DNA of 32,000 bases, from assembly GCF_025562755.1 (NCBI RefSeq), contig NZ_CP103300.1:4743990-4775989 (forward strand), read 5' to 3'. The translations under genes and the position numbers were made by a program. Numbering within the stretch: the stretch's first letter is position 1; every line of letters starts with the position of its first letter. This document shows, piece after piece, positions 27,943-28,397 of this stretch. The notes under the pieces are model-generated. The model ran no database searches. It saw nothing but the letters and a program-made list of their open reading frames with translations, and was not told where the DNA came from. This DNA is from Endozoicomonas euniceicola (GTDB lineage Bacteria; Pseudomonadota; Gammaproteobacteria; Pseudomonadales; Endozoicomonadaceae).

Positions 27943-27967
27943 TGCTTTTAAACCAAACCCCAATTGA

Positions 27968-28174
27968 AACCAGTGGTTTTATAACCCTAAGTCTGTTTCA
28001 GCCTGCATTACCCTCTTGCGACTGACTCTGGCAGATCGTGATAAAATTGATGAGCCGGGCCTTAAAGCCATAGGCGCAAAAGGTGTGGTTAAGCTCGGAA
28101 CCAATAACCTTCAGGTAATCCTTGGTCCACAGGCTGAAATTATTGCCGGTGAAATCAGGCTGGAGATAGCTTAG
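27968..28174 (+). pseudogene. Remnant of a PTS EIIB(Glc-family) domain; the EIIC part and the start codon are missing
   Basis: The frame is open only from 27968 and has no start codon. It translates to ...KSVSACITLLRLTLADRDKIDEPGLKAIGAKGVVKLGTNNLQVILGPQAEIIAGEIRLEIA*. This aligns with the EIIB C-termini of PtsG/NagE (CITRLR...GVVKL...QVI.G..AE.I). In the active-site motif CITRLR the first Arg is replaced by Leu. Confidence 0.75.
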
Positions 28175-28397
28175 CGACTTTTTGCTAGAAGTTGTCCCGG
28201 GAAATTGTGCGGAATGGAGCGATAGCGATAAACCGCTATATCAATCCCTTTCGCTTTCTATTCCAATAGAATTGTAAGGGGTTGCCGTTGTGCAGCTCCG
28301 CAGGTTTTAATTTGAGCATCCGGAGAGGCTGACTTATTCTTTTGCAATTCAGCCTCTTTATCGCTCGCAAAATCTCCACGCTATTGAGAGAAAGGCA

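Follow-up and report, generated by a model that had tools for sequence, protein, structure and literature searches.

A short open frame upstream of ptsH, the gene for HPr, is very probably the non-functional remnant of a nagE gene whose front has been replaced by a cassette of 3,249 bp carrying a single WD40-repeat gene. The window, that is, the whole 32,000-nucleotide stretch of DNA that was analysed, corresponds to G000:C1:4743990-4775989, where G000 is a 6.5-Mb single-contig genome. Within it, the remnant occupies positions 27981-28174 and the cassette positions 24732-27980, both on the + strand. The cassette would have replaced about 1.32 kb of ancestral DNA, either in one step by illegitimate recombination or in two, by an insertion followed by a deletion.

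The frame opens shortly after the stop codon of the WD40 gene (TAA, 27940-27942). Following a TGA at 27965-27967, it runs from 27968 to a TAG at 28172-28174, which leaves a gap of 223 nt before the ptsH ATG at 28398. No ATG, GTG or TTG codon occurs in this frame upstream of its Cys codon, the earliest candidate being a TTG at 28016, past the Cys. Inspection of reading frames and starts thus bears out the preliminary description on each of these points: a neighbouring stop just upstream, a frame at 27968 with no start codon, and an end 223 nt before ptsH.

The 68-aa translation of the frame matches TIGR01998, the NCBIfam model for the NagE EIIBC protein, at positions 417-475 of 475 (E=3e-19; 69.1 bits, against a curated cut-off of 553.2 bits that the fragment does not reach). 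The malX and ptsG models match more weakly (1.2e-13 and 7.5e-12). The translation also covers positions 44-88 of 88 in TIGR00826 and, among PDB chains, aligns to residues 416-467 of E. coli PtsG with an E-value of ~1e-8, so the resemblance to EIIB first noticed by eye is significant on a proper search. Because just profile positions 14-34 of 34 remain, the fragment falls short of the Pfam PTS_EIIB (PF00367) gathering threshold, with 23.7 bits against 27. Within G000, the other NagE-type gene shares 70% identity with the fragment, and the ptsG of the window 48% (45-48% for the two ptsG-like genes of the genome); these identities and the best-scoring model both favour the NagE type over the ptsG type, as had been proposed. 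The EIIC domain is absent, as also claimed, with no match to PF02378 in the fragment or anywhere in 24641-28174. The frame had been said to encode a C-terminal EIIB domain; the domain is recognisable, but only about its C-terminal two-thirds is left, and the codons at 27968-27980 are derived from the cassette. On the family match, synteny and the junction alignment taken together, 27981-28174 is a pseudogene fragment comprising the terminal 64 codons of a NagE-type EIICB gene (codons ~403-466 plus the stop); its amino-acid identity to the corresponding 3' ends of the intact genes in synteny is 76-87%.

Those intact genes were found in a DNA search of 40 relatives, in which the fragment sequence lies ~0.5 kb upstream of ptsH in most genomes of the same genus; eight loci were taken for mapping of the window proteins. 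All seven cassette-free genomes (G007, G011, G002, G003, G006, G008 and G009) have a single long EIICB-like match directly 5' of ptsH, with gapA and pyk downstream of it, and in none of the seven does the WD40 gene occupy the slot between ptsH and the gene for an ABC-type sugar-binding protein (SBP). The seven syntenic genes are 458-466 aa long, are open for 458-460 codons from the start of the match, all encode CITRLR, and end 210-358 nt 5' of ptsH. The G007 orthologue, at 466 aa, scores 643.6 bits on TIGR01998. Further upstream, the minus-strand pair of ptsG and SBP genes was mapped in G007 and G011.

The window retains both anchors of this arrangement. On the left, the SBP gene (23369-24640, minus strand; Pfam SBP_bac_8 and SBP_bac_1) has an orthologue in the same place in G010, G007 and G011. 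On the right, ptsH is intact (28398-28655, + strand; Pfam PTS-HPr, 91.6 bits; NF008104, E=3.9e-36), with gapA and pyk behind it, the order found in all relatives. The remnant lies precisely in the SBP/nagE/ptsH/gapA/pyk slot of the seven relatives and, as judged from synteny, the ancestor is one with a NagE-type EIICB gene between the sugar-binding-protein gene and ptsH. The preliminary description had reasoned from the fragment that an intact EIICB gene once stood directly upstream of ptsH and had called for a comparison of synteny; that comparison recovers the arrangement in seven of seven cassette-free genomes of the genus, with the WD40 gene missing from the slot. The same order of cassette, ptsH, gapA, pyk, pfk and crr was seen in one Logan contig, retrieved by exact look-up of HPr. 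Elsewhere in the window, ptsI lies at 2919-4634.

A second intact NagE-type EIICB gene occurs in G000 at ~3.68 Mb (640.9 bits), and the loss of the ptsH-linked copy is therefore buffered. A second nagE paralogue in G010 and G011 is likewise suggested by DNA matches of comparable strength. Adjoining the second NagE-type gene of G000 is a C-terminal fragment of TnpB, of the IS200/IS605 type (L002 66-677, G000:C1 ~3.679 Mb).

Alignments with the relatives place both ends of the cassette. At the left, homology to the ancestral-type loci covers the SBP gene as well as 91 bp (24641-24731) of the divergent SBP-nagE intergenic region, ending ...ACTGGTTAAT at 24731, and the junction is 24731|24732, a boundary that is new relative to the earlier account. 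At the right, nagE homology restarts at 27981 ('ATAACC...', codon ~403) with an ATAA microhomology at 27981-27984; this falls within 27943-27990, the interval to which the right-hand boundary had been assigned. The ancestral DNA missing between the two junctions amounts to ~1.32 kb, made up of 131 bp of promoter-proximal intergenic region and nagE codons 1-402, and its counterpart is L025 5677-6994 in the related genome G010. The cassette itself has no counterpart at the locus in the seven cassette-free genomes, and its GC content is ~0.39-0.50, against 0.52-0.58 in the flanking genes.

Neither terminal inverted repeats nor a target-site duplication could be found around 24732 and 27980, and the cassette contains no transposase, its sole gene being the WD40 open reading frame. 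Insertion of an IS element or transposon was rejected on these three grounds, and the lack of inverted repeats and target duplication argues for illegitimate recombination rather than transposition. At its 3' end, the cassette bears a 36-nt motif with a weak hairpin (27949-27984, + strand), which is 94% identical to G010:C1:538505-538540, where it directly follows the stop codon of an unrelated gene. Since the motif recurs in G010, the end of the cassette can be put at ...TTTATAA, where ATAA is shared with nagE. The predicted folding energy of the motif is -4.5 kcal/mol (z -0.3) in the window and -11.4 kcal/mol at the G010 site; it could be a short portable element resembling a terminator. At the 5' end of the cassette, a blastn search against G000 revealed a degenerate copy of a MITE-like repeat (24751-24838) consisting of a heptamer array and a hairpin. 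This repeat has ~100 blastn matches in G000 at 78-87% identity, and its full unit of ~150 bp (for example, at G000:C1:3262609) is built of TAAGGG...CCCTTA-type ends, a variable GCTGTTG heptamer array and a conserved hairpin. Apart from this short piece, G000 contains no other copy of the cassette or of its ends. No donor of the cassette was found among the genus genomes, the species-representative genomes or 5.8 billion proteins, where similarity was to the WD40 domain alone, and an Rfam scan of 24600-29200 gave no match.

The WD40 gene (24916-27942, + strand) encodes 1008 aa that match only WD40 and beta-propeller families in Pfam. Among 14 genomes of the genus, G000 and G010 alone carry an orthologue, and matches among the 5.8 billion proteins are confined to the WD40 region. 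The gene had been described as an F-box gene; however, no Pfam family, including the F-box families PF00646 and PF12937, matches residues 479-615 at E<=10, and a PDB sequence search with residues 501-615 returned no F-box chain. As the F-box escapes detection by sequence searches, 'WD40 gene' is the safer name. The earlier proposal that the EIICB gene was truncated by the arrival of a segment ending in an F-box gene is therefore kept in part: the segment is a single-gene cassette, but the F-box was not detected. Between G000 and G010 (24916-27942 against L025 8160-11150), dN/dS for the WD40 gene is ~0.42, compared with 0.04-0.18 for the flanking genes, and variation in its length lies mainly in an N-terminal Ser/Phe repeat (~24850-25050) and an acidic repeat (~26950-27050); this pattern indicates relaxed or diversifying selection. 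In a separate region of the chromosome, G000:C1:713000-807000, more than 15 open reading frames of ~900-990 aa lie on the same strand, with WD40 regions 30-37% identical to that of the cassette protein; this run looks like a large paralogous array.

The phosphoryl-transfer motif of the remnant carries a lesion. Codon 28013-28015 (+ strand) is CTC (Leu) in the window and CGC (Arg) in every other copy, and by the PDB alignment it occupies the position of E. coli PtsG Arg-424. The motif consequently reads CITLLR, as originally noted, compared with CITRLR in all eight intact relatives and paralogues examined and in the G010 remnant as well; the phospho-Cys and the second Arg are kept. According to a passage in PMC9631020, which cites Lanz & Erni 1998, Arg-424 and Arg-426 are invariant arginines required for phosphoryl transfer to the sugar. 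Changes private to G000 in the remnant comprise two non-synonymous substitutions (Leu-to-Pro at 27986 and CGC-to-CTC at 28013) and no synonymous one, while the G010 remnant has two synonymous changes and a MITE insertion; the counts are very low in both carriers. Most codons that distinguish the remnant lineage from the intact lineage of G007 and G010 copy 1 do so by synonymous or conservative changes, and several remnant codon states are those of the outgroup G011, which argues that the divergence built up in an intact gene and that truncation came late. By this comparison, the Arg-to-Leu change postdates the truncation and is confined to the G000 lineage.

In G010, a 298-bp MITE (L025 11312-11609, equivalent to G010:C1:227311-227608) interrupts the remnant after window position 28103. 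This element is recently active: G010 holds seven copies at 99-100% identity, and as a whole unit it is absent from G000 and G007. Its ends also occur ~1.25 kb apart at several G010 sites, and these ~1.25-kb elements are probably the parent IS of the MITE. The remnant appears to have begun to decay, through the Arg-to-Leu change in the catalytic motif here and the MITE in the sister copy. Aside from the two lineage-specific substitutions, the frame in the window is still clean and is interrupted by neither a stop nor a frameshift. Any decay is hence slight, and this leaves room for selection on the DNA, for instance as a leader of ptsH.

We weighed this last idea, that the nagE 3' end and the spacer behind it are kept by selection as the promoter or 5' leader of ptsH, and regard it as rather unlikely, although it is compatible with pseudogene status. 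The ancestral nagE-ptsH spacer (28175-28397, + strand), presumed to be the leader or promoter region of ptsH, is well conserved in G000, both G010 copies, G007 and G011. The same five sequences keep two palindromes, ATAGCG..CGCTAT at 28222-28239 and TTCTATT..AATAGAA at 28257-28272, which are candidate operator sites. The breakpoint is identical in both carriers of the remnant, but common descent of the allele explains that; moreover, a 298-bp MITE is tolerated inside the G010 remnant, and a simple scan of the + strand found no sigma-70 promoter consensus in 27981-28397. Simple scans and folding of the + strand of 27943-28397 likewise turned up no convincing terminator, a point in favour of a leader role. 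Read-through from the WD40 gene into ptsH, beside any promoter of its own, is possible for the same reason, and ptsH may receive it. With ptsH now downstream of a foreign gene and no clear terminator in between, expression of HPr may have been rewired. The remnant most likely persists as DNA upstream of ptsH that is transcribed or acts as a spacer.

The G010 locus holds the ancestral and the scarred arrangement in tandem. Its order is SBP gene, intergenic region, nagE, spacer, ptsH, terminators and a 25-nt intergenic stub, followed by the WD40 cassette, the remnant with its MITE, and then a spacer, ptsH and terminators again before gapA. The intact-type nagE of copy 1 has an additional C in a C-run (L025 6562) that yields frames of 277 and 221 aa; either the frameshift is genuine or the extra C is a homopolymer error. 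The stub corresponds to the last 25 nt of the intergenic region retained in the window (24707-24731), which accompany the cassette in G010, and it is identical to the G000 intergenic sequence at 24 of 25 positions, compared with 21 of 24 aligned positions for the intergenic region of G010 itself. From this G000-like stub, it follows that the cassette once abutted the intergenic region and that the window preserves the primary scar.

Sequence divergence between the two genomes is uneven across the locus. Over ~45 kb around it, nucleotide identity between G000 and G010 is 88-92%, whereas for 24707-28103 it is 96.2%. The dS value of the cassette gene is 0.047, against 0.21 for ptsG, 0.40 for the SBP gene, 0.27 for ptsH, 0.13 for gapA and 0.37 for pyk, and the density of differences jumps at ~28440, just inside ptsH. 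In G010, copy 2 resembles G000 in its remnant and spacer. The equivalent segment and spacer of copy 1 are unlike G000 and resemble G007, with which identity is 94.7% between the 3' end of EIIB and the ptsH stop. The two G010 copies of ptsH and its terminators are ~99.3% identical to each other, hence recently duplicated, and are equally different from G000. At the upstream junction in G010 is a microhomology, GCTGT.GAT, matching at 8 of 9 nt. On the left flank, the SBP genes of G000 and G010 are unusually divergent, with 86.7% amino-acid identity against 97% for the adjacent ptsG, which hints at further recombination mosaicism there.

Together, the stub match, the low dS of the cassette and the recent duplication point to recent import into G010. 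The pattern suggests lateral transfer of the scarred allele with homology at ptsH as the anchor, and we infer, as the simplest reading, that it was recently imported into the G010 lineage. In the proposed mechanism, a first, homologous crossover would have taken place at the 5' end of ptsH and a second, illegitimate one downstream of the resident terminators, producing a duplication of 560 bp. On balance, we lean slightly towards a scenario in which a ~3.7-kb unit, made up of the stub, cassette, remnant and leader, spread laterally between two ~91%-identical species, with the remnant, the leader and a few dozen nt at the start of ptsH as its anchor and the 8/9-nt microhomology at the other junction; ptsH and its terminator would thereby have been duplicated in G010. 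Campbell-type integration of a circularised donor was rejected as the simplest model, the ptsH and terminator of copy 1 not being donor-like.

Were the G010 tandem instead ancestral, the window form would be secondary, arising by deletion of the intact nagE and ptsH between the 25-nt repeats. The 25-nt stretch is indeed present both in the SBP-nagE intergenic region of G010 and directly before its cassette, and recombination between these two copies would yield exactly the structure of the window. We nevertheless consider this order of events improbable: the G010 stub itself requires an earlier contact between cassette and intergenic region, which is the state seen in the window, and is the more G000-like of the possible matches (24/25 against 21/24); the cassette dS of 0.047 stands far from the flanking range of 0.13-0.40 and from a background identity of 88-92%; and the ptsH-terminator duplicates, at ~99.3% identity, are recent.

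Least credible is that the fragment encodes a functional small standalone EIIB-like protein, a regulator or phosphocarrier (for example, the 52 aa from the TTG at 28016 in a frame that stays open to the native stop), since that TTG is preceded by no purine-rich Shine-Dalgarno sequence and lies past the phospho-Cys, giving a product without the active site, the EIIB fold lacks its N-terminal part (PF00367 14-34 of 34; TIGR00826 44-88 of 88), and the relatives examined have no short EIIB-only gene at the locus. Nor was the conserved standalone EIIB gene seen that the preliminary description had named as the case against it: the sole other carrier of the fragment, G010, has a MITE-split orthologous copy. 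With no start, no EIIC and an incomplete EIIB fold, the nagE remnant would not be translated as EIIB, and a functional standalone EIIB from it is very unlikely.

A pseudogene remnant at an insertion scar is an ordinary phenomenon, to which the evidence for lateral movement of the allele adds modest interest. Here, the remnant allows both ends of an acquired segment with a single gene to be placed with a precision of a few bases: illegitimate recombination would have brought in the WD40 gene on a 3.25-kb cassette, with the loss of one of the two nagE paralogues. G010 presents the alleles from before and after this event together in one genome, and its comparison with G000 suggests that such cassettes move between sister species via flanking homology. 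If that is true, a dead gene fragment has served as an integration handle that moves a eukaryote-like gene between related genomes, a useful piece of natural history on how genes of this kind spread.

Set against known systems, the window fragment is a piece of a NagE-type EIICB (TIGR01998; E. coli NagE and the Vibrio-type EIICB-Nag) and not a member of that family. It shares with these proteins the last 59 model positions, the phospho-Cys and the second Arg, but lacks EIIC, the linker, the first part of EIIB and a start, and has Leu at the equivalent of Arg-424; the syntenic orthologues of the relatives pass the family cut-off. With E. coli IIB-Glc (PDB 1IBA, 3BP3 and 1O2F; PtsG 386-477), it aligns over 416-467, including the region of C421, but its identity to the ptsG type is ~45-50% and ~30 N-terminal residues of the fold are absent. 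Like classical IS and transposon scars, the locus shows a gene broken by lineage-specific DNA with small mobile repeats close by; unlike them, it involves a cassette that lacks a transposase, inverted repeats and a target duplication, and 1.32 kb of the target was deleted. The closest parallel for the tract in G010 is homology-facilitated illegitimate recombination, reportedly described by de Vries and Wackernagel in 2002. As in that process, one junction is homologous, at the 5' end of ptsH, and the other bears an 8/9-nt microhomology; the G010 event, whose mechanism is read from sequence alone, differs in being an insertion with a 560-bp ptsH-terminator duplication rather than a simple replacement.
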